Assembly (NCBI GenBank): GCA_048882325.1
Contig: JBHLRS010000003.1
Span: 64,001-128,000 of the forward strand
DNA from: Candidatus Thorarchaeota archaeon
GTDB lineage: Archaea; Asgardarchaeota; Thorarchaeia; Thorarchaeales; Thorarchaeaceae
Direction of reading: 5' to 3'
DNA: 64,000 nt
Both the position numbers and the translations under genes were made by a program. Positions within the stretch are counted from its first letter, which is position 1. Every line of letters starts with the position of its first letter. Shown piece after piece: positions 48,043-55,797 of this stretch. Below the pieces are notes generated by a model, which was not told the origin of the DNA, made no database searches, and saw only the letters and a list, made by a program, of their open reading frames with translations.

Positions 48043-49142
48043 ACAGAGCCAGCCTGTTTCTCCTTTTCTTTGTCCAGATCCTTGACACGCTTCTCAATAC
48101 CACCTTCAGCTTTTTCAATTCGCTTCTGAATGTCCTTTATTCGTTTTTCTCGTGATGAGACCTCGTTCTTCATTCGCTTCTCGGACTGTTGATACACCTT
48201 AGTGGCGTCATTCCACTCTTGTTTTGCTAGCCGTAATTGTTCCTCCAAGCTCTCAAAATGAATCCTCTTGACCTCTGCTACATTCCAGTAGTCCTGAACT
48301 TCTGACTCAAGTCGTGAACGAACAGTGTCCAAATCAGAATTGAACTGTGCTAGCTCCGTGTGCAGATTCTTCAGGTCATTGACGATACCGATTATTTGTG
48401 GGTCTTGTCTGTAATCAGGGTCTGGCAATCCAGATAGAATTGAAGATATCTCAGGAATCGATGAAGCTGTGGGCTTTGGTGCTGGTCTTAGCGGAGGTGG
48501 TGTAAGGGTCGGAGCTTTTGCGGCAACTTTGGTCATAGGCGGTTGCGCAGTTGGTTTTGGTTCTGGAGCTGGTGTCTTCGCCGCTGGTGGTCCCACAGGA
48601 GCTGTTGGCTGTGGTTGTGCTGGACTAGGACTTGGTGGTCCTGTTGCTCCGGGTGGAGCAGACCCAGGTGGTGTAGCAGGAGCTGCTGTAGGTGGAGCTG
48701 ACGCAGCAGGCGGTGGAGTGGCCGGCATCGCTGGAGTTGCATCACGTTGAGTTTCCAGCTCTCCCATAAGCTCTTGCACCTCACTCGCTCTGAGCATTCT
48801 TGTTTCAATGATGCCTTCTCCTTCCTCCTCAATACCGACCTTGTCCGCTTTAGCAAAAGCTTCCATCGCTTTCTCCATCTCAGACTTTGGTTTAGTAGTT
48901 CCCTCGGCAGCTCTCACGCGGTCTCGGGAGACCTGACTTGGTTTGACCCACTCATCATTGGTGGTCACTCTTGCTTCGCTTGTTGAAGATACAGGCGGTG
49001 GAGCTGCTTGAGGAGTAGGAGTTTCAGCTGGAGAGGAGATAGTCTGCGGCCTTGACTCTACAGACAATAGGTTTCCTCCACAGCGTATACAGTACTTTCT
49101 AGTGGGCTGATTTGCCCTACCACATTTGGGACAGGTTCTCAT
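48039..49142 (-). CDS. Zinc-ribbon / proline-rich / coiled-coil protein
   Basis: CPKCG..N....KYC..CG, a long Pro/Ala/Thr-rich linker, and a ~110-aa C-terminal coiled coil. Confidence 0.8.
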   Translation of the reverse strand: MRTCPKCGRANQPTRKYCIRCGGNLLSVESRPQTISSPAETPTPQAAPPPVSSTSEARVTTNDEWVKPSQVSRDRVRAAEGTTKPKSEMEKAMEAFAKADKVGIEEEGEGIIETRMLRASEVQELMGELETQRDATPAMPATPPPAASAPPTAAPATPPGSAPPGATGPPSPSPAQPQPTAPVGPPAAKTPAPEPKPTAQPPMTKVAAKAPTLTPPPLRPAPKPTASSIPEISSILSGLPDPDYRQDPQIIGIVNDLKNLHTELAQFNSDLDTVRSRLESEVQDYWNVAEVKRIHFESLEEQLRLAKQEWNDATKVYQQSEKRMKNEVSSREKRIKDIQKRIEKAEGGIEKRVKDLDKEKEKQAGSV

Positions 49143-49289
49143 AATGGTCCAGCTCCATCAAGCGAATCAACTAACATTAGATACATCTATACTGTAAAGG
49201 TTTTCTGAGATACAAGTGCGCCACTCTCTATAACCAAGGTAAGCTAATATTCGATATTCGTTGACGTAATTCACCGGTGATATGACTTG

Positions 49290-50873
49290 ATGAGTCATGC
49301 AATCGAAGCACTCCTTATAACTGACAAAGGTGGAAGTCCGAGATTCTACATGCAACTGGATCCCAAAGCTCTCAATATGGATCCGGTGATGGCTTCCAGT
49401 TTCTTTGCTGCCATTGACATGTTCTCTAAGGAGGTATTCGATGAGAAAGCTCCGGTTGTCCAGGTTGACTATGGTGCACGACTATTCACTTTGATTAATG
49501 GTGTAAACACAAACATGATAGCTGTTAGTGTTCAACGGCTTGGACAAGAGTCGATAGACATTCTTGATTCTCTTCTTGCTGAGTTTGAACTTGACTGGCT
49601 TGAAATTGTAGATCCTTTCCAGTTCAGTTTTGAAACATCTTTTGTTGATGTGTATTTGGAGGCATTCGGTGAGCGTGTTATGGAGAAGCTCTCACTCCGA
49701 TTACTCGGTGAAACATGGGTTCCTTACTTCACAACAAAACCAGACGCGCTTGAATCTGTCTTCAGTATCCTCATGGATTACATTAATGGTTCTAGGAATG
49801 TGAAGGAGATAATCGAGGTCAGTGGTCTCTCACGTCGTGAGGTTGTCCTTGATCTCTCAAAGCTATGGGCACATCGAGTAATTCGATTTCGAAACATGTT
49901 CAATTTCAATGACTTCATGACCACTGGAACTCAGTTTGTGAGATATGCACAAGCAACATCCGCTGAAACACAGGATTTGCAGTCGCTTCATCCTGATATG
50001 GCTGGGGTGATCCCACATCTTGCAGGTATGATAGATGGACGTCGAACTGTCCGAGAAATCCTCGCAGTGCTTGGCACCCGCTATGATGAGAGCGAACTGC
50101 TTCGAGCATTAGACTATCTAATTGAAGTTGGAGTGATTGAAGCCCTAACTCCTGAAAAAAGGCGAATTCTCCTTGTAAAGGAGGCTCTTGAGCTCGCAAT
50201 CAGAGTGGCTGAAGGGACTTACAACGTTGCAGAGGCAACCAATGCATTGCAGTTTGTTATGAAGACTAGTAAGACCCCTGAGGCCCTAAGTCAGATTCAA
50301 CTCAAAGATGGTAAGTGGAAGGTTGACTTTGATTTCAAGATACTCGAAGGTCTGAACCATAAACGGCTCATGTTACTATTTGGGGAATGGATGAAGATTC
50401 TTGCCCAGTTCGTCAATGCATTGAATCCCGTCAAACTGAACCTGTACATCGGAAATCTGACCACTGTGATTTCGCAAAGAATAATCTGTCGATACTCAGC
50501 ATTCGACCTAAGAGGGTTCGAGGAATTTGCTTATTGGCTGGAGATACTAAGTACCCCTACGAAACCTCACGTTGGACCGATTGAAACCAGTCACCTACGG
50601 ATTGCATGGTCAAACGCTTTGGAGGAATTGGGGTATCTTTTAGTAACCCGCGGCCACATCATTTACAAGTCTGAGAGTATTACACAGATTCGGTCAACGT
50701 CTGGAACCCCACTCATAGACCTTCTTCCAACAGAGTGGGTTGGACGAGACCGAATAGAGACCTTTGAGCGAATAATGGTGGAATATGCAAATCTAGGTCC
50801 AGCAGCAAAGCTGACATTACTTGTCCTTGCGACTCAACGTGGTATCTTGATACCCAAAGAAATCATCATTTAG
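49290..50873 (+). CDS. Longin-like domain plus tandem winged-helix protein (NPRL2/Npr2-like)
   Basis: Longin-type N-terminus (LLITDKGG...DP.MASSFFAAI..FS.E) and two [IM].G.R.V.EI repeats. Confidence 0.7.
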   Translation: MSHAIEALLITDKGGSPRFYMQLDPKALNMDPVMASSFFAAIDMFSKEVFDEKAPVVQVDYGARLFTLINGVNTNMIAVSVQRLGQESIDILDSLLAEFELDWLEIVDPFQFSFETSFVDVYLEAFGERVMEKLSLRLLGETWVPYFTTKPDALESVFSILMDYINGSRNVKEIIEVSGLSRREVVLDLSKLWAHRVIRFRNMFNFNDFMTTGTQFVRYAQATSAETQDLQSLHPDMAGVIPHLAGMIDGRRTVREILAVLGTRYDESELLRALDYLIEVGVIEALTPEKRRILLVKEALELAIRVAEGTYNVAEATNALQFVMKTSKTPEALSQIQLKDGKWKVDFDFKILEGLNHKRLMLLFGEWMKILAQFVNALNPVKLNLYIGNLTTVISQRIICRYSAFDLRGFEEFAYWLEILSTPTKPHVGPIETSHLRIAWSNALEELGYLLVTRGHIIYKSESITQIRSTSGTPLIDLLPTEWVGRDRIETFERIMVEYANLGPAAKLTLLVLATQRGILIPKEIII

Positions 50874-50937
50874 TTGTGCATTTCGTCTGAAGAACTGTTA
50901 TCTAAGAAAATTGAAGAAACCTATGTGGTGACCGTGA

Positions 50938-51453
50938 ATGAGCCCTTCCTATCTATTGAAAATTGTCACAGTTGGAGCTGCCTCAGTTGGGAAAACTAGT
51001 ATTATCATAAGATACTCAACAGGCACGTTCCGTGAACATTACTCTCCAACACTTGGTGTGGGTTTTGCATACAAGAAGATGGAGGTCGATGAGGACTCCG
51101 TGAACCTACAGATTTGGGACCTAGGCTCGCAGGACTTCCTTGAGCGGACGCGTGCCAATTACTACCTGGGAGCTCAAGGTGTTGTCTTCATGTTTGATGT
51201 CACATCTTGGGAGTCACTAAATGAAGTCATTGATTGGAAGAAAGAAGTCGACAGAAATCTTGATGATTACAAAGCACTTCTGGTAGGAAATAAGACCGAC
51301 CTTGCAATGGAGAGGGTAGTTTCCACTGAAGAGGGTCAGAAGATTGCGAAGCAAATGGGGGTAGACTACATAGAAACGTCAGTTCGTCTTGACATGAATG
51401 TGAATACTGCCTTTGAGATGATAGCAAGAAGTATCATTTCATCGTTCCACTAA
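50938..51453 (+). CDS. Rab/Ras-like small GTPase
   Basis: G1 GAASVGKT, G2 PTLGV, G3 WDLGSQ, G4 GNKTD, G5 ETSV. No C-terminal prenylation Cys. Confidence 0.93.
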   Translation: MSPSYLLKIVTVGAASVGKTSIIIRYSTGTFREHYSPTLGVGFAYKKMEVDEDSVNLQIWDLGSQDFLERTRANYYLGAQGVVFMFDVTSWESLNEVIDWKKEVDRNLDDYKALLVGNKTDLAMERVVSTEEGQKIAKQMGVDYIETSVRLDMNVNTAFEMIARSIISSFH

Positions 51454-51604: not shown

Positions 51605-53074
51605 CTACTTTGAAGCCTTCTCCCTTGCAATCTCCAACGGCGGCATGACTTCCTTTGGAATTGGGCAAACGTATTTTTTACCAGTCATTCTCTCTGCATG
51701 CTCATCCTTGATTTTCTTCAGTAAATCGGGCTTAGTGAAGAGGTCGACTGCCGTACCCGCTATAACCTTGGATGCGAAGATGAGCGACTTATGTCCGATA
51801 CTCATTCCGCAACAAGCAACCCATTGCCAGTCATGTCCAGCACCTTCAAGAACTGCAGTAGCTGTTTGGAACTCCATGGTTGGGGCAATCCAACTGACAT
51901 CTGCAGTGTCCGTTGATCCTGGCCACACTATTCCCTCATCCCATGGGTCATGTATCTTGCTGTCAATGTGAACATCGTCTTCCACCAATTTCTCCCATCC
52001 AGGACGTTTTGAAGCCCTTAGAAGCTCTATCTTCTTCTCCTTTGTCACCGATTTTGCAATTTCCTCTGCGAATTTCATCTCCTCATCCGTGTAAGTAGGT
52101 GCACCTATCTCTCTCATATTGGTAATGACAAGCTCACTAAGACACTTACTAGGGAGCTCATTAGAGAGGCCCTCTAGAAATTCTACCTTCAGTTCAGTCT
52201 GGGTCATTAACGCTGCCCCCTCAGCAATCTTCAGTACCCAGTCATAGATGTGGTTGACCTGTTCTCGTTCTGGAGCTCGAATATAATACCATGTGCGGGC
52301 ATAATCAGGGACAACGTTAGGCTGCCTACCTCCCTCTTCAATCACGTAATGAACACGTGCCTCCTGTATCACATGCTCTCGCATGAAGTTTACACCTACA
52401 TTCATGAGTTCAACCGCATCGAGTGCGCTTCTCCCAATATAAGGTGTAGCGGCTGAATGGGCTGTCTTGCCATAGAAATGAAACTTCGCTGAGTTCATGG
52501 CTAGCGAACTCCCTAGTCCCGCAACATTGAAGCGGCCCGGATGGTGACTTAGTACTGCATCAATACCCTCAAAGCATCCTGCCCTGACCATGAAGACTTT
52601 ACCACTATAGGTTTCCTCGGCTGGGGTTCCAAGAAACTTGACCGTTCCTTTCATACCGTGTTTTTCCATTACCGTCTTCGTGGCTATCGCTCCAGTCACA
52701 CCCGTCATTCCATGGATATTGTGTCCACATCCATGTCCAGGTGCCCCCTCCTCTACGGGTTCTCGATATGGTACTGGTTTCTGCGAGAGCCCCGGAAGGG
52801 CGTCATATTCTCCCATAAAACCGATTGTTGGGTCTCCTTTTCCATAGGTTGCTACAAATGCGGTTGGCATGTCTGCAACACCCATCTCAACCGAAAAGTC
52901 ATGTTCCTCCAGAATCTTAGCAAGAAACTTCGAGGACTTGTCTTCCACAAGACCAAGCTCTGCAAATTCCCAAACTTTGTTGCTCGCTTCGATTATCATC
53001 TGTTCATTGTCTGTTATCCAATCCCATGCATCTTGCTTCATTTGGTTGACCCAATCCACAACCAACTCACTCAC
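51605..53074 (-). CDS. M20D amidohydrolase (AbgB-like)
   Basis: GEYDALPGLSQ, GHGCGHN, GTPAEE, GRSALDAVELM, GSTD.ADVSW. Confidence 0.92.
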   Translation of the reverse strand: MSELVVDWVNQMKQDAWDWITDNEQMIIEASNKVWEFAELGLVEDKSSKFLAKILEEHDFSVEMGVADMPTAFVATYGKGDPTIGFMGEYDALPGLSQKPVPYREPVEEGAPGHGCGHNIHGMTGVTGAIATKTVMEKHGMKGTVKFLGTPAEETYSGKVFMVRAGCFEGIDAVLSHHPGRFNVAGLGSSLAMNSAKFHFYGKTAHSAATPYIGRSALDAVELMNVGVNFMREHVIQEARVHYVIEEGGRQPNVVPDYARTWYYIRAPEREQVNHIYDWVLKIAEGAALMTQTELKVEFLEGLSNELPSKCLSELVITNMREIGAPTYTDEEMKFAEEIAKSVTKEKKIELLRASKRPGWEKLVEDDVHIDSKIHDPWDEGIVWPGSTDTADVSWIAPTMEFQTATAVLEGAGHDWQWVACCGMSIGHKSLIFASKVIAGTAVDLFTKPDLLKKIKDEHAERMTGKKYVCPIPKEVMPPLEIAREKASK

Positions 53075-53168: not shown

Positions 53169-54214
53169 ATGCAAGAAAAAGAGGAGAACGTGGTTTACAA
53201 ATTTATAGAACCAGTCTTGGTAGCACAAATCAGAATACATGGTTACTCAAGTGATTTACCAGTAGCATTTTCTAAACTACAAGAACTTGTTAGAAACCTT
53301 GTCATTGGCAGTCCTATTGTGGTTCATCATTGGGGAGTCAACGATGAACACGGTCATGATATGGATGTATGTGTTCCGATAAAGAAGCAAGTAGAAGAGA
53401 GAGGTGTTATGATTACAACTCTTCCTGCAAAAGATGCGATGACAATGATACACAAGGGACCATATTCAGACATTGGACCATCGTACTCGAAGATCTCAAG
53501 TCACACCTACGAACGAGGACATCCCATAGCGGAATCATCTCGAGAAATATATCATCACTTAGATGTCAACCACCCGGAAGACACTATCATCGAGATTCAG
53601 ACGATTCTACATGATTGGACACAGAGGTATTCAGCAAAGCTGGAATCTGTTCTGGGCAAGACAATAAAAGAAGAAGTCCTTGCCCCTTTGAATGGTCTTG
53701 ATGTTGACTCATCTGCTGATATTCGACAGAAAGCCCTCTGCAGATCACTTGATTTCTTGGAAAATCTAACAGATGATGATCAACAGTATGAAATTCTGTC
53801 GCATTGCGCACATGTTTTCCCTGTGGAACTCATTCCTCCGATGAGAGCACTGTTAAAGTCAACTGAAGTGTAGATAAGGTGATTGAAGCAATGCTGGCAA
53901 AAGGAGGATACTATCCAAAGATCATTAATCGAGAAGGCTCAATTATTTTTACAGAAAAGAGTCCTGCTAACCCAACAGCCTTCAAGGATGCCCAAACAGA
54001 TGCTCATCGAAAAAAGGCTTACTGTTTTTGTCCACTAATCAGGGACTACCTTGATGAGGTTCCCCAGATTTTCTGTATTTGTTCAGCAGGATGGCCGAAA
54101 CAACTTTGGGAGGGTATTTTTGAAAAGCCACTCAAGATAGAGATAGTACAGTCTCTGACAAAAGGGGATGACACGTGCGAATTCGCTATTCATATCCCTC
54201 CAGAAATCTCATGA
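53169..54214 (+). pseudogene. GyrI-like effector domain plus Cys-rich C-terminal domain, split by a frameshift
   Basis: GyrI motifs H.GPY, REIY. Frame changes at ~53865-53873 and continues as SVDKVIEAM...YCFCP...FCICSAGW...GDDTCEFAI. Confidence 0.65.
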
Positions 54215-55615
54215 AACAGGCAGTAGAATACGATATGCCGTTCCTCTGTCTTCTTTGATGAGTTCTATTGATCCTCCATATCCTTCAACGACTTTCTTGC
54301 TCAGATACAGACCAAAACCTCCGCCAGTTGTTGAAGTTCCTTTCTCAAATAGGTCTGGTAGTATTTCTTCAGGAATGCCAGGGCCATCGTCTCTGATGAT
54401 GGTCTGTACATCTGATCCCTCTTGGGACACTTCTATAGTCACTGAAACATCACCCTCAGAATACTCTGCTGAGTTGCGCAGAAGATTGTCAAAAACTATG
54501 GCAATCAAACGAGCACTTTCGAGTTCAACGTTTGGTAATGCTGATTGAAGAGTGACACTGAGATTGGGGTGTGCTTTCTCAGCTTGAACTTTCACTTTTT
54601 CCAGTATTTTTATGAGGTCTCTTTCCTCCGCCGCTCCAGGTCGACCAAATACATCAAGAAGATGCACCATCCTCTCAGAAGCCGCCTCTACAGTCTGAAT
54701 GTATTCCTTGACTGTATTATCCGCATCCATCAACATCAACGCCGCCTCTGCATGATTCATAATGACCTGCAGATCGTTTCTGATATCATGCTGCAGAAAA
54801 GAGGCATAGAGCTCAAGGTCTCTATGAGATTGAGCCGCTTTTCGATCAGCCATTATACGTTGTGTGATATCTTCTTTCACAGCGACATAGTGTGTTATAA
54901 CGCCCTCTGAACTGAAGATTGGCGAGATCCATGCATCCTCCCAGTATAGATCCCCATTCTTCTTTTTATTGACAAAAAGCCCCCTCCAAGGACGACCCTC
55001 CGTCAGAGTTCTCCAGAGGTCTTCATGTGTTTCTACCGGAGTCAATTCTGATTTGAGAATTCTCGGATTTTTCCCTACTGCCTCTGCCATGGAGTACCCA
55101 GTAAGTGATGAGAACTTTGGATTGACATACTCTATTGTTCCTTCGGAATCTGTGATGACTACAGAAGTTGGACTTTGTTCAACAGCTCTAGAGAGTTTAC
55201 GAAGATCCTCCTCCGCTTCTCTCTCTTTTGTTACATCTATCACTACTGCAATGGCGCCAATGATCTTATCAAACTCATCCTTTCTCGGTACTGCAGAAAC
55301 TCGCACAACAATTGTCTTACCGTCCTTTCGTTTCATTAAGAGTTCGTATGCTGAGGAAACACCTGCCAGTCTGTCTGATGTTTCCCTACGCAAAGTGTCT
55401 AATTCCTTCTCAGAAACAAGATCAAAAACATTCATCCCTCTTAGTTCGTTGAGTTCATATCCTAGTATCTTTGCAAAGGCATCATTCACAAAAACAAGGT
55501 TCTCATCAAGATCTGTGATTCCAACCCCCTCTGGAAGAAGAGCCAAGAGGTCCCTATAACTCCTCTTGGTCATTCTCAGGATATCTGGGCTAGCATCGGT
55601 CTTTCGTGACGACAT
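54209..55615 (-). CDS. PAS-PAS sensor histidine kinase
   Basis: Two PAS/PAC domains, H-box QHDIRNDL, N-box NLLRNS, DDGPGI, GFGL. Confidence 0.93.
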   Translation of the reverse strand: MSSRKTDASPDILRMTKRSYRDLLALLPEGVGITDLDENLVFVNDAFAKILGYELNELRGMNVFDLVSEKELDTLRRETSDRLAGVSSAYELLMKRKDGKTIVVRVSAVPRKDEFDKIIGAIAVVIDVTKEREAEEDLRKLSRAVEQSPTSVVITDSEGTIEYVNPKFSSLTGYSMAEAVGKNPRILKSELTPVETHEDLWRTLTEGRPWRGLFVNKKKNGDLYWEDAWISPIFSSEGVITHYVAVKEDITQRIMADRKAAQSHRDLELYASFLQHDIRNDLQVIMNHAEAALMLMDADNTVKEYIQTVEAASERMVHLLDVFGRPGAAEERDLIKILEKVKVQAEKAHPNLSVTLQSALPNVELESARLIAIVFDNLLRNSAEYSEGDVSVTIEVSQEGSDVQTIIRDDGPGIPEEILPDLFEKGTSTTGGGFGLYLSKKVVEGYGGSIELIKEDRGTAYRILLPVS

Positions 55616-55797
55616 TTTTGGCTCCACCAAGGGTCCGCGGAATTTTCGGTTGTACCAGATGTATCGTAAATAGACTTTCCGATTTGACTGAGGACCAGCA
55701 ATACACAGGACTAAGCAGAATTTTCTTTCATCCTACCTTGACAGCAAGCTCATATAGTACCAGTTTCAAAGAGGTTAACGAACGGAGTGTTCCCCAA

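Follow-up and report, generated by a model that had tools for sequence, protein, structure and literature searches.

An NPRL2-like protein encoded beside a Rab-like GTPase with an unusual G3 motif in Thorarchaeota

NPRL2 and yeast Npr2, the catalytic subunits of GATOR1 and SEACIT (PDB chains 6ces_N, 8fw5_B and 8adl_S), consist of a longin domain followed by two winged helices, and act on a small-GTPase partner, the Rag/Gtr dimer, together with NPRL3 and DEPDC5/Iml1. In the structural literature, the arginine finger of GATOR1 is assigned to NPRL2 Arg78, located on a longin loop; the same source describes two modes of GATOR1, a docking mode that is strong and a distinct catalytic mode that is weak, as well as protein contacts made by the NPRL2 winged-helix domains (PMC8534245). 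An 'NPRL2-like' family in metagenome-assembled genomes (MAGs) of Thor- and Lokiarchaeota has already been described (Liu et al., bioRxiv 10.1101/2020.10.19.343400), and an asCOG named 'NPRL2-like longin domain' appears in PMC9834061. Here we analyze a pair of neighboring genes from a Candidatus Thorarchaeota archaeon, located at 49290-51453 of a stretch of 64,000 nucleotides (positions 64,001 to 128,000 of contig JBHLRS010000003.1, assembly GCA_048882325.1; hereafter the window, to which all coordinates without a prefix refer). The first gene encodes an NPRL2-like protein, which we call the regulator, and the second a Rab-like small GTPase.

The regulator resembles NPRL2/Npr2 in having a longin domain and two winged helices in the same order. 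In contrast to them, it carries about 240 additional C-terminal residues that include the predicted GTPase-binding site, and it is not matched by the Pfam NPR2 model. The GTPase encoded next to it is a Rab-like protein of 171 residues without a roadblock domain rather than a Rag/Gtr dimer. As to partners like NPRL3 and DEPDC5/Iml1, the source genome holds a paralogous regulator (C66), although it and the regulator each have a GTPase of their own. A scan with IML1/DEPDC5 (PF12257) gave no match in the source genome, a Thorarchaeota assembly that is about 93% complete; this model was silent in control genomes too. The domain organization and distribution of the regulator family agree with those of the family of Liu et al., as far as its available description extends, and the regulator is almost certainly a member of it. 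The portion of that description available to us makes no mention of an adjoining GTPase, of a D-x-G-S-Q motif, of the extra helical domain or of a split or fused module. Likewise, the literature that we searched holds no account of the D-x-G-S-Q pairing, the co-duplication with a split or fused module, or the helical interface, although figures and supplements may contain them. The homology to NPRL2 is thus already in print, and what is gained here is a testable system, not a new homology.

Three further groups of systems invite comparison. Asgard longins of the FLCN/SMCR8 type, for which GAP (GTPase-activating protein) activity has been proposed, share with the regulator a Gly/Pro motif before β2 and a conserved Arg on a neighboring loop; according to PMC12290439, a GP motif before β2 combined with an arginine finger is the signature of GAP-type longins, some Asgard ones included. 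Those longins are reported mainly from Heimdallarchaeia; their GP is contiguous and their partners are of the DENN type (PMC12290439), whereas the regulator has G-x-P, NPRL2-type downstream domains and a GTPase contact predicted elsewhere. The bacterial Ras-like GTPase MglA is likewise co-encoded in an operon with a regulator of the roadblock/longin superfamily, its roadblock GAP MglB. However, MglB is a roadblock alone and contacts MglA via a roadblock dimer, unlike the contact via a helical domain predicted here. The same principle of co-encoding, with a different regulator architecture, applies to the Asgard operon of a LAMTOR1-like protein, a Rab-like GTPase and a DENN protein presented by Liu et al. 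In the Lokiarchaeon MK-D1, according to PMC10933270, small-GTPase genes generally lie outside operons with longin or roadblock genes. Finally, the crystallized Thor-Rab (7ezb; PMC10933270) and eukaryotic Rab1, Rab3 and Rab35 have the same GTPase core as the protein encoded here, and differ from it in its D-L-G-S-Q at G3, its S-V-R at G5 and its lack of a prenylation cysteine.

The regulator gene occupies 49290-50873 on the plus strand. An in-frame TTG at 49287 directly precedes an ATG at 49290, giving proteins of 528 and 527 residues, respectively; the ATG is the likely start because close homologs are 527 residues long and begin with MSHAIE. We number regulator residues from the TTG. The GTPase gene follows on the same strand at 50938-51453, separated by a spacer of 64 nucleotides (50874-50937) that holds a Shine-Dalgarno-like GGTGA at 50927-50931, 6 nucleotides 5' of the GTPase ATG. 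A search for a terminator-like hairpin in the spacer found none, which is weak evidence given that the scan was of a bacterial type, and a promoter and terminator scan with bacterial models returned counts at chance level. Database searches with the regulator yielded 177 homologs, every one an Asgard 'hypothetical protein' labeled as Thor, Loki or other Asgard, and the nearest of them, at 89-94% identity, come from Candidatus Thorarchaeota MAGs.

Profile and fold comparisons converge on NPRL2 as the closest characterized relative of the regulator. We built a family alignment of 39 sequences (profile A1) and extended it to 41 (profile A2) with remote relatives from an exhaustive HMMER scan of 1.84 billion proteins, which at E ≤ 1e-3 returned 54 representatives. 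Against the PDB, human NPRL2 was the best match of A1 (E 0.0048) and again ranked first with A2 (E 2.2e-6), residues 143-286 of the query aligning with NPRL2 174-328 and thereby spanning both winged-helix repeats; yeast Npr2 ranked third (E 0.17). An AlphaFold2 model of the whole regulator (predicted local distance difference test, pLDDT, 77.6; predicted template modeling score, pTM, 0.69) had 13 Foldseek matches at E ≤ 1e-3, all 13 of them chains of GATOR1/SEAC entries. So that the longin domain could not dominate the comparison, we also modeled residues 140-528 alone (pLDDT 86.3, pTM 0.84). With this model, Foldseek gave no match at E ≤ 1e-3, and ranks 1 to 8 were GATOR1/SEAC chains (best E 3.4e-3, root-mean-square deviation (rmsd) 4.3 over 162 columns). 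In a Foldseek-independent scan of the same model against 48,161 representative solved chains, human NPRL2 (8fw5_B) came first (Z 9.9, rmsd 3.8, 148 residues aligned, regulator 140-289 against NPRL2 169-328), followed by yeast Npr2 (8adl_S; Z 9.3, rmsd 4.0, 146 aligned). All remaining rows span a single winged helix of at most 80 residues, with single-domain RRE/PqqD types ranking lower. It is therefore the tandem arrangement, and not merely the winged-helix fold, that is NPRL2-like. We conclude that the regulator is a remote homolog of NPRL2/Npr2 over the longin domain and the tandem winged helices; taken by itself, the homology of its N-terminal half to NPRL2 is very likely.

The first winged-helix repeat (49713-49931, residues ~143-215) reads WVPYFT...INGSRNVKEI...LWAHRVIRF and aligns with NPRL2 ~174-250, and the second (49932-50153, residues ~216-289) reads IDGRRTVREI...LDYLIEVGVIEAL and aligns with NPRL2 ~251-328. 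The two repeats are 38% identical to each other over 32 residues (E 6e-5 in a single comparison). A first-pass annotation made from the sequence alone had likened the region after the longin domain to that of NPRL2, and the profile and fold ranks above bear this out. The strings on which it relied are all present at their residues: WVPYFT at 144-149, DYINGSRNVKEI at 164-175, DLSKLWAHRVIRF at 189-201, MFNFNDF at 204-210 and, in the second repeat, DGRRTVREI at 250-258. Scans with the single sequence do less well: for the 528-residue protein, Pfam and NCBIfam returned only sub-threshold matches to HTH_NPRL3, PqqD and ApyI. The HTH_NPRL3 match, the only one to an NPRL-named Pfam model, covers residues 150-186 and scores 16.8 bits, short of the cut-off at 27.2 (E 0.0068); the same model matches 6 of the 41 family members (best E 2.4e-4), and PqqD matches 4 (best E 7.3e-4). 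The second winged helix also resembles peptide-binding RRE/PqqD domains in its fold, with Z 7.3 to the PbtF RRE.

The longin-like N-terminus noticed in the same annotation is indeed a standard longin fold. It comprises residues 4-141 (49296-49709, plus strand), as delimited by AlphaFold2 secondary structure and fold match, with the modeled order β-β-α-β-β-β-α-α. Its Z scores of 10-11.7 to many solved longin domains denote a generic longin fold, not an NPRL2-specific one. The β1-β2 loop carries G16-x-P18, with either residue conserved in 37 of the 41 members, and the β3-β4 loop carries Y62-G63-x-R65 (36/41, 38/41 and 31/41 for the three named residues); the remaining 10 members have His, Gln or another residue in place of R65. 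The Gly/Pro motif thus has one residue between Gly and Pro and is not a contiguous GP. Two family members match other longin models of Pfam: one is hit at E 2.4e-5 by 'First Longin domain of FUZ, MON1 and HPS1', the other at E 0.0063 by the model for INTU/CCZ1/HPS4 longins. Both models describe tri-longin families of the guanine-nucleotide exchange factor (GEF) type. Matches of a longin-only profile to ribosomal protein eL8 (E 0.01-1) were treated as noise.

Beyond the NPRL2-like half lie two modules without an evident solved relative. A family-specific helical domain (50154-50576, residues 290-430) bears the predicted GTPase-binding surface, and a C-terminal helical module (50616-50870, residues ~444-528) exists as a separate gene of ~109 residues in a paralogous operon; the stand-alone representatives of this module found in the HMMER scan have 85-106 residues. 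None of the 48,161 solved chains is a clear match to residues 290-528, the Z scores of ~5-6 over helical stretches being within noise, and we therefore claim no new fold; a feature search of the ESM Atlas, using residues 288-527, brought up nothing usable. The helical domain is marked by invariant motifs, namely EKRRILL at 290-296, W368..A373-Q374 and D407-x-R-G-F-E-E-F..W417-x-E419. Columns that are invariant in profile A1 are E290, R292, R293, W368, A373, Q374, D407, G410, E412, E413, W417 and E419. Across the wider family of 41 members, W368 is kept in 38, E290 in 36, E419 in 35 and D407 in 32; R292 is Arg in 34 and Lys in 5, R293 is Arg in 30, E412 is Glu in 27 and Asp in 6, and E413 is kept in 27.

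The partner is a member of the Ras superfamily. Its 171 residues match Pfam Ras at 158.7 bits (E 1.2e-46), whereas Gtr1_RagA scores 20.3 bits, under its cut-off of 22; among solved structures, the partner is closest to Rab3, Rab35 and Rab1, at E ~3e-36 (Rab3B, 3e-36), with the crystallized Thor-Rab at 6e-30. This is in line with the earlier view of the partner as Rab-like rather than Rag. G1 (GAASVGKT, 13-20), G2 (T38) and G4 (NKTD, 118-121) are canonical. G3 reads WDLGSQ (residues 60-65, nucleotides 51115-51132), in which Ser takes the place of the Gly found in Ras-like proteins, and so fails the pattern DxxGQ; G5 reads ETSVR (146-150, nucleotides 51373-51387). The C-terminus, ...IISSFH, contains no Cys, and two relatives read to their ends lack a C-terminal Cys as well. 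The replaced G3 glycine, the ETSVR and the missing lipidation cysteine had all been pointed out in the first-pass annotation, and the sequence confirms each of them. Since D-x-G-G-Q is the form of G3 in Arf, Rag and Gα proteins, we take D-L-G-S-Q to be an Arf/Rag-type motif with its second Gly replaced.

This G3 is not a one-off but a conserved family signature: D[LM]GSQ is present in 58 of the 59 GTPases encoded beside a relative of the regulator, the sole exception having DLGGQ, and Gln65 is invariant in all 23 aligned partner GTPases. The source genome has 22 small-GTPase matches by tblastn, only two of which contain DLGSQ, and these are exactly the two encoded behind the two regulator paralogs; the next most similar GTPase in the genome is 38% identical. 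Each of these two paralogs is accompanied by its own GTPase. The second operon (C66:3310-5476, equivalent to locus L075:1498-3679) encodes a 422-residue regulator, a 109-residue protein corresponding to residues ~445-528, and the second DLGSQ GTPase. A third, distant paralog (C22:27946-28947, minus strand; locus L076) is a frame of 427 residues with E 1.5e-33 to profile A2, and no GTPase match was found within its 4-kb locus. Elsewhere in the genome, a 657-residue frame (C2:180580-181959, minus strand) matches Gtr1/RagA (24.6 bits) as well as the family profile over its longin portion (E 5.7e-10); by its sequence it is apparently a longin-GTPase fusion such as have been reported from Asgard archaea.

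Conservation of the gene pair, which the annotation had proposed as a check, is pronounced. A survey of one genome per prokaryote species yielded 73 loci, of which 63 were assessable; nine of the others are cut by a contig end and one has too little downstream DNA. In 54 of the 63, a GTPase gene starts on the same strand within 500 bp downstream of the regulator. Four loci have it ~1.46 kb downstream, behind one inserted gene for an unrelated secreted protein, and in two the GTPase match lies at a distance of over 2 kb; in L015 this match is partial and only 41% identical. The remaining three lack a GTPase match in the available DNA, amounting to 4 kb in L016 and L052 and to only 1.3 kb in L066. 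L015, L016 and L052 form one subclade whose regulators are ~60% identical to the query. A tree of the GTPases resolves two clades (100/100 support, 41 and 18 rows) that track the form of the regulator, which is either fused (526-535 residues, as here) or split (410-425 residues plus a separate gene of ~109 residues before the GTPase); in the loci of clade B the regulator matches are split. Since the GTPase clades follow the regulator forms, the operon was duplicated as a whole and its C-terminal module was fused or split. One further arrangement, in a Promethearchaeota MAG (L055:3169-7095), consists of a 34%-identical GTPase, a full NPRL2-like gene, a stand-alone copy of residues 284-522 and then a 71%-identical cognate GTPase, a layout suggestive of an autonomous helical domain. 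Given the pairing at 54 of 63 loci, the duplication of both genes together and a G3 signature private to the pair, mere neighborhood of the two genes is unlikely.

We predicted the structure of a complex of the two proteins with GTP and Mg, using alignment A1 for the regulator and A3 for the GTPase. The interface score (ipSAE) was 0.79 for the regulator-GTPase pair (0.80, 0.79 and 0.77 in the individual runs), compared with 0.00 for the best of three controls. As a benchmark, 116 of 157 solved complexes and 2 of 215 mismatched pairs attain this score of 0.79, a rough guide given the custom alignments and ligands. The runs agree on at least 75% of contacts, and the partner pLDDT is at least 87. 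Confident contacts involve regulator residues 290, 293, 362-377, 409-420, 427-439 and 454-459 (454 and 458-459 included) and GTPase residues 6-8, 16 in the P-loop, 27-28, 34-43 in switch I, 45, 56, 58, and 65, 67, 71 and 77-80 in switch II. Among the 25 pairs listed, those of lowest error join E413, W417, M369 and A373 to GTPase residues 36-39. The interface residues of the regulator coincide with its family-invariant columns, and the contact region, 290-459, has no counterpart in the aligned part of NPRL2. Recall of a known complex by the predictor is unlikely because the helical domain has no solved relative among the 48,161 chains. Taken together, the regulator and the GTPase are likely to be cognate binding partners.

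The explanation that we favor, and consider probable as a whole, is that in Thorarchaeota the two genes make up a dedicated GTPase switch of two components. One gene encodes a multi-domain protein, the regulator, with an N-terminal half homologous to NPRL2 and a C-terminal half specific to the archaeal family (290-430 and 444-528), and the other would encode its cognate Rab-like GTPase, marked by the D-x-G-S-Q at G3. In the predicted complex, the regulator would grip switch I (34-43), switch II (65-80), S16 of the P-loop and the catalytic Gln65, and would do so through its most conserved surface, composed of E290 and R293 of EKRRILL, the helix with W368, A373 and Q374, and the segment R409-G-F-E412-E413-F...W417. 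We infer that the regulator senses and controls the nucleotide state of the GTPase, with the NPRL2-like half serving perhaps as a platform for dimerization or output. The preferred direction would be GTPase activation, that is, an off-switch, with the finger contributed by the invariant R292 or R293 or, as in NPRL2, by R65 of the longin loop. We lean toward a GAP only tentatively, because the sole characterized homolog is a GAP subunit, Gln65 is invariant, and R292/R293 lie at an interface that touches the P-loop and Gln65. A role as an effector of the GTP state or as a scaffold is possible though hardly probable, and a GEF is somewhat doubtful.

Several points weigh against the switch as we describe it. 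At E ≤ 0.1, not one of the 41 family members is matched by Pfam NPR2 (PF06218), which also has no match anywhere in the source genome at E ≤ 1e-3. A longin-only profile (A5, 22 sequences) searched against the PDB retrieves neither NPRL2 nor any other longin. The regulator-GTPase complex is a computed model, in which no longin residue is named among the confident contacts, although an unnamed residue is not proof of no contact, and in which the acidic pair E412/E413 provides the lowest-error contacts on switch I 36-39, a geometry that would also suit the acidic wedge of a GEF. Co-transcription of the pair is suggested by spacing and the Shine-Dalgarno-like motif only. Finally, L015, L016 and L052 retain all interface residues, yet have no adjoining cognate GTPase. 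The first-pass annotation had envisaged a minimal, ancestral longin-regulator/GTPase switch and had proposed to look for an arginine finger in a modeled complex. Homology, pairing and predicted binding (ipSAE 0.79) speak for such a switch, whereas an NPRL2-style longin finger finds no support in contacts that fall at 290-459. Neither adjective finds support: the regulator has 528 residues and two extra modules compared with the 380 residues of human NPRL2 (PDB chain), and in a sample of 301 genomes of the phylum, searched at E ≤ 1e-20, the family is present in 66 and nearly confined to the taxonomic family of the source genome (57 of 76 genomes, against 8 of 224 elsewhere).

Among the rival explanations, the first keeps the GAP direction and moves catalysis to the longin domain. 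The regulator would be a GATOR1-like GAP of minimal form, whose longin domain, probably dimeric, would dock on the GTPase and insert R65 as the equivalent of Arg78, aided by G-x-P. The idea draws on the homology to NPRL2, whose Arg78 serves GATOR1 as a longin-loop finger according to PMC8534245; on the conservation of G16, P18 and R65; and on the GP and arginine-finger signature of GAP-type longins, some of them from Asgard archaea, as given in PMC12290439. The separate weak catalytic mode of GATOR1 also makes a second, longin-based mode conceivable beside the predicted one. We nevertheless regard this explanation as unlikely, since all confident contacts lie at 290-459 and none of the named residues belongs to the longin domain (the unnamed ones being merely uncertain), the motif is not a contiguous GP, and R65 is replaced in 10 of 41 members. 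As the longin-only profile does not retrieve NPRL2, R65 is only a putative equivalent of Arg78. One family member, moreover, matches the Fuz/Mon1 longin model of the GEF type rather than an NPRL model.

An exchange factor would use the same surface in the opposite direction: the helical domain would open switch I, with E412/E413 as an acidic wedge at the Mg2+/phosphate site. Such a wedge would resemble the glutamate finger used by Sec7 domains. The closest predicted contacts, between E413 and switch I residues 36-39 with the Mg-binding T38 among them, are what this explanation calls for, and the conservation of D407, E412 and E413 is compatible with it. Longin-containing complexes are, moreover, mostly GEFs according to PMC10933270 and PMC8534245. 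However, the high complex score was obtained with GTP and Mg present, the nearest eukaryotic homolog is a GAP subunit, and the invariant Gln65 together with R292/R293 at the interface fits catalysis of hydrolysis at least equally well. The 48,161-chain scan revealed no fold likeness to any known GEF either, and we judge an exchange factor of this design improbable.

Less plausible still is that the regulator acts as an effector or output device, for instance a winged-helix DNA- or peptide-binder whose activity the GTPase gates in its GTP-bound state. Among archaeal DNA-binding modules tandem winged helices are typical, the second one here has the RRE/PqqD likeness noted above, and the regulator contacts the switch regions, as effectors do. 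Yet the tandem unit fits NPRL2/Npr2 better than any DNA-binding protein, and its counterparts in GATOR1 contact proteins, according to PMC8534245. The predicted interface further includes P-loop residue 16 and Gln65. To judge from solved effector complexes, contact with both the P-loop and the catalytic Gln is unusual for a pure effector. The extreme form of this explanation, in which regulator and GTPase are mere neighbors, is countered by the conservation of the pair across loci, its duplication as a unit and its private G3, all described above.

Upstream of the pair and divergent lies a gene for a 367-residue protein (48039-49142, minus strand) with an N-terminal zinc ribbon (sub-threshold Pfam matches), a Pro/Ala-rich low-complexity center and a C-terminal coiled coil; we rejected it as part of the module, as it is kept upstream in only 11 of the 73 loci, all of them at least 89% identical in the regulator. 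Beyond it, 46409-48042 contains a putative GNAT open reading frame of 315 residues on the minus strand and a 160-residue GNAT gene on the plus strand (Acetyltransf_1, 4.1e-17), whose stop and the end of the zinc-ribbon gene overlap by 4 nucleotides. Downstream, convergent to the GTPase gene, an M20-family peptidase is encoded at 51605-53074 on the minus strand (Peptidase_M20, 4.1e-12) and is kept there in close relatives. An open reading frame of 473 residues at 54209-55630 (minus strand) is, from the look of its translation, a putative PAS-domain histidine kinase.

Asgard genomes encode dozens of small GTPases and of longin and roadblock proteins. Against this background, the locus offers a specific, conserved and co-duplicated pair, an NPRL2 homolog and a GTPase with a private G3, for which a concrete interface is predicted. 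A far-reaching proposal, to which we assign little probability, is that the helical domain with EKRRILL, W-AQ and RGFEEF (290-430) constitutes a new and structurally unassigned class of small-GTPase regulatory domain, either GAP or GEF, and that both paralogous pairs assemble via their longins into a 2:2 heteromer prefiguring NPRL2-NPRL3 with RagA-RagC. If this were true, the NPRL2 lineage would have served a Rab/Arf-like GTPase before its recruitment to Rag signaling. More generally, the pair bears on whether the GAP activity of NPRL2-, FLCN- and SMCR8-type longins predates eukaryotes and which class of GTPase these proteins first served, and on whether, in the extra helical domain, GTPases have a regulator of a new kind.

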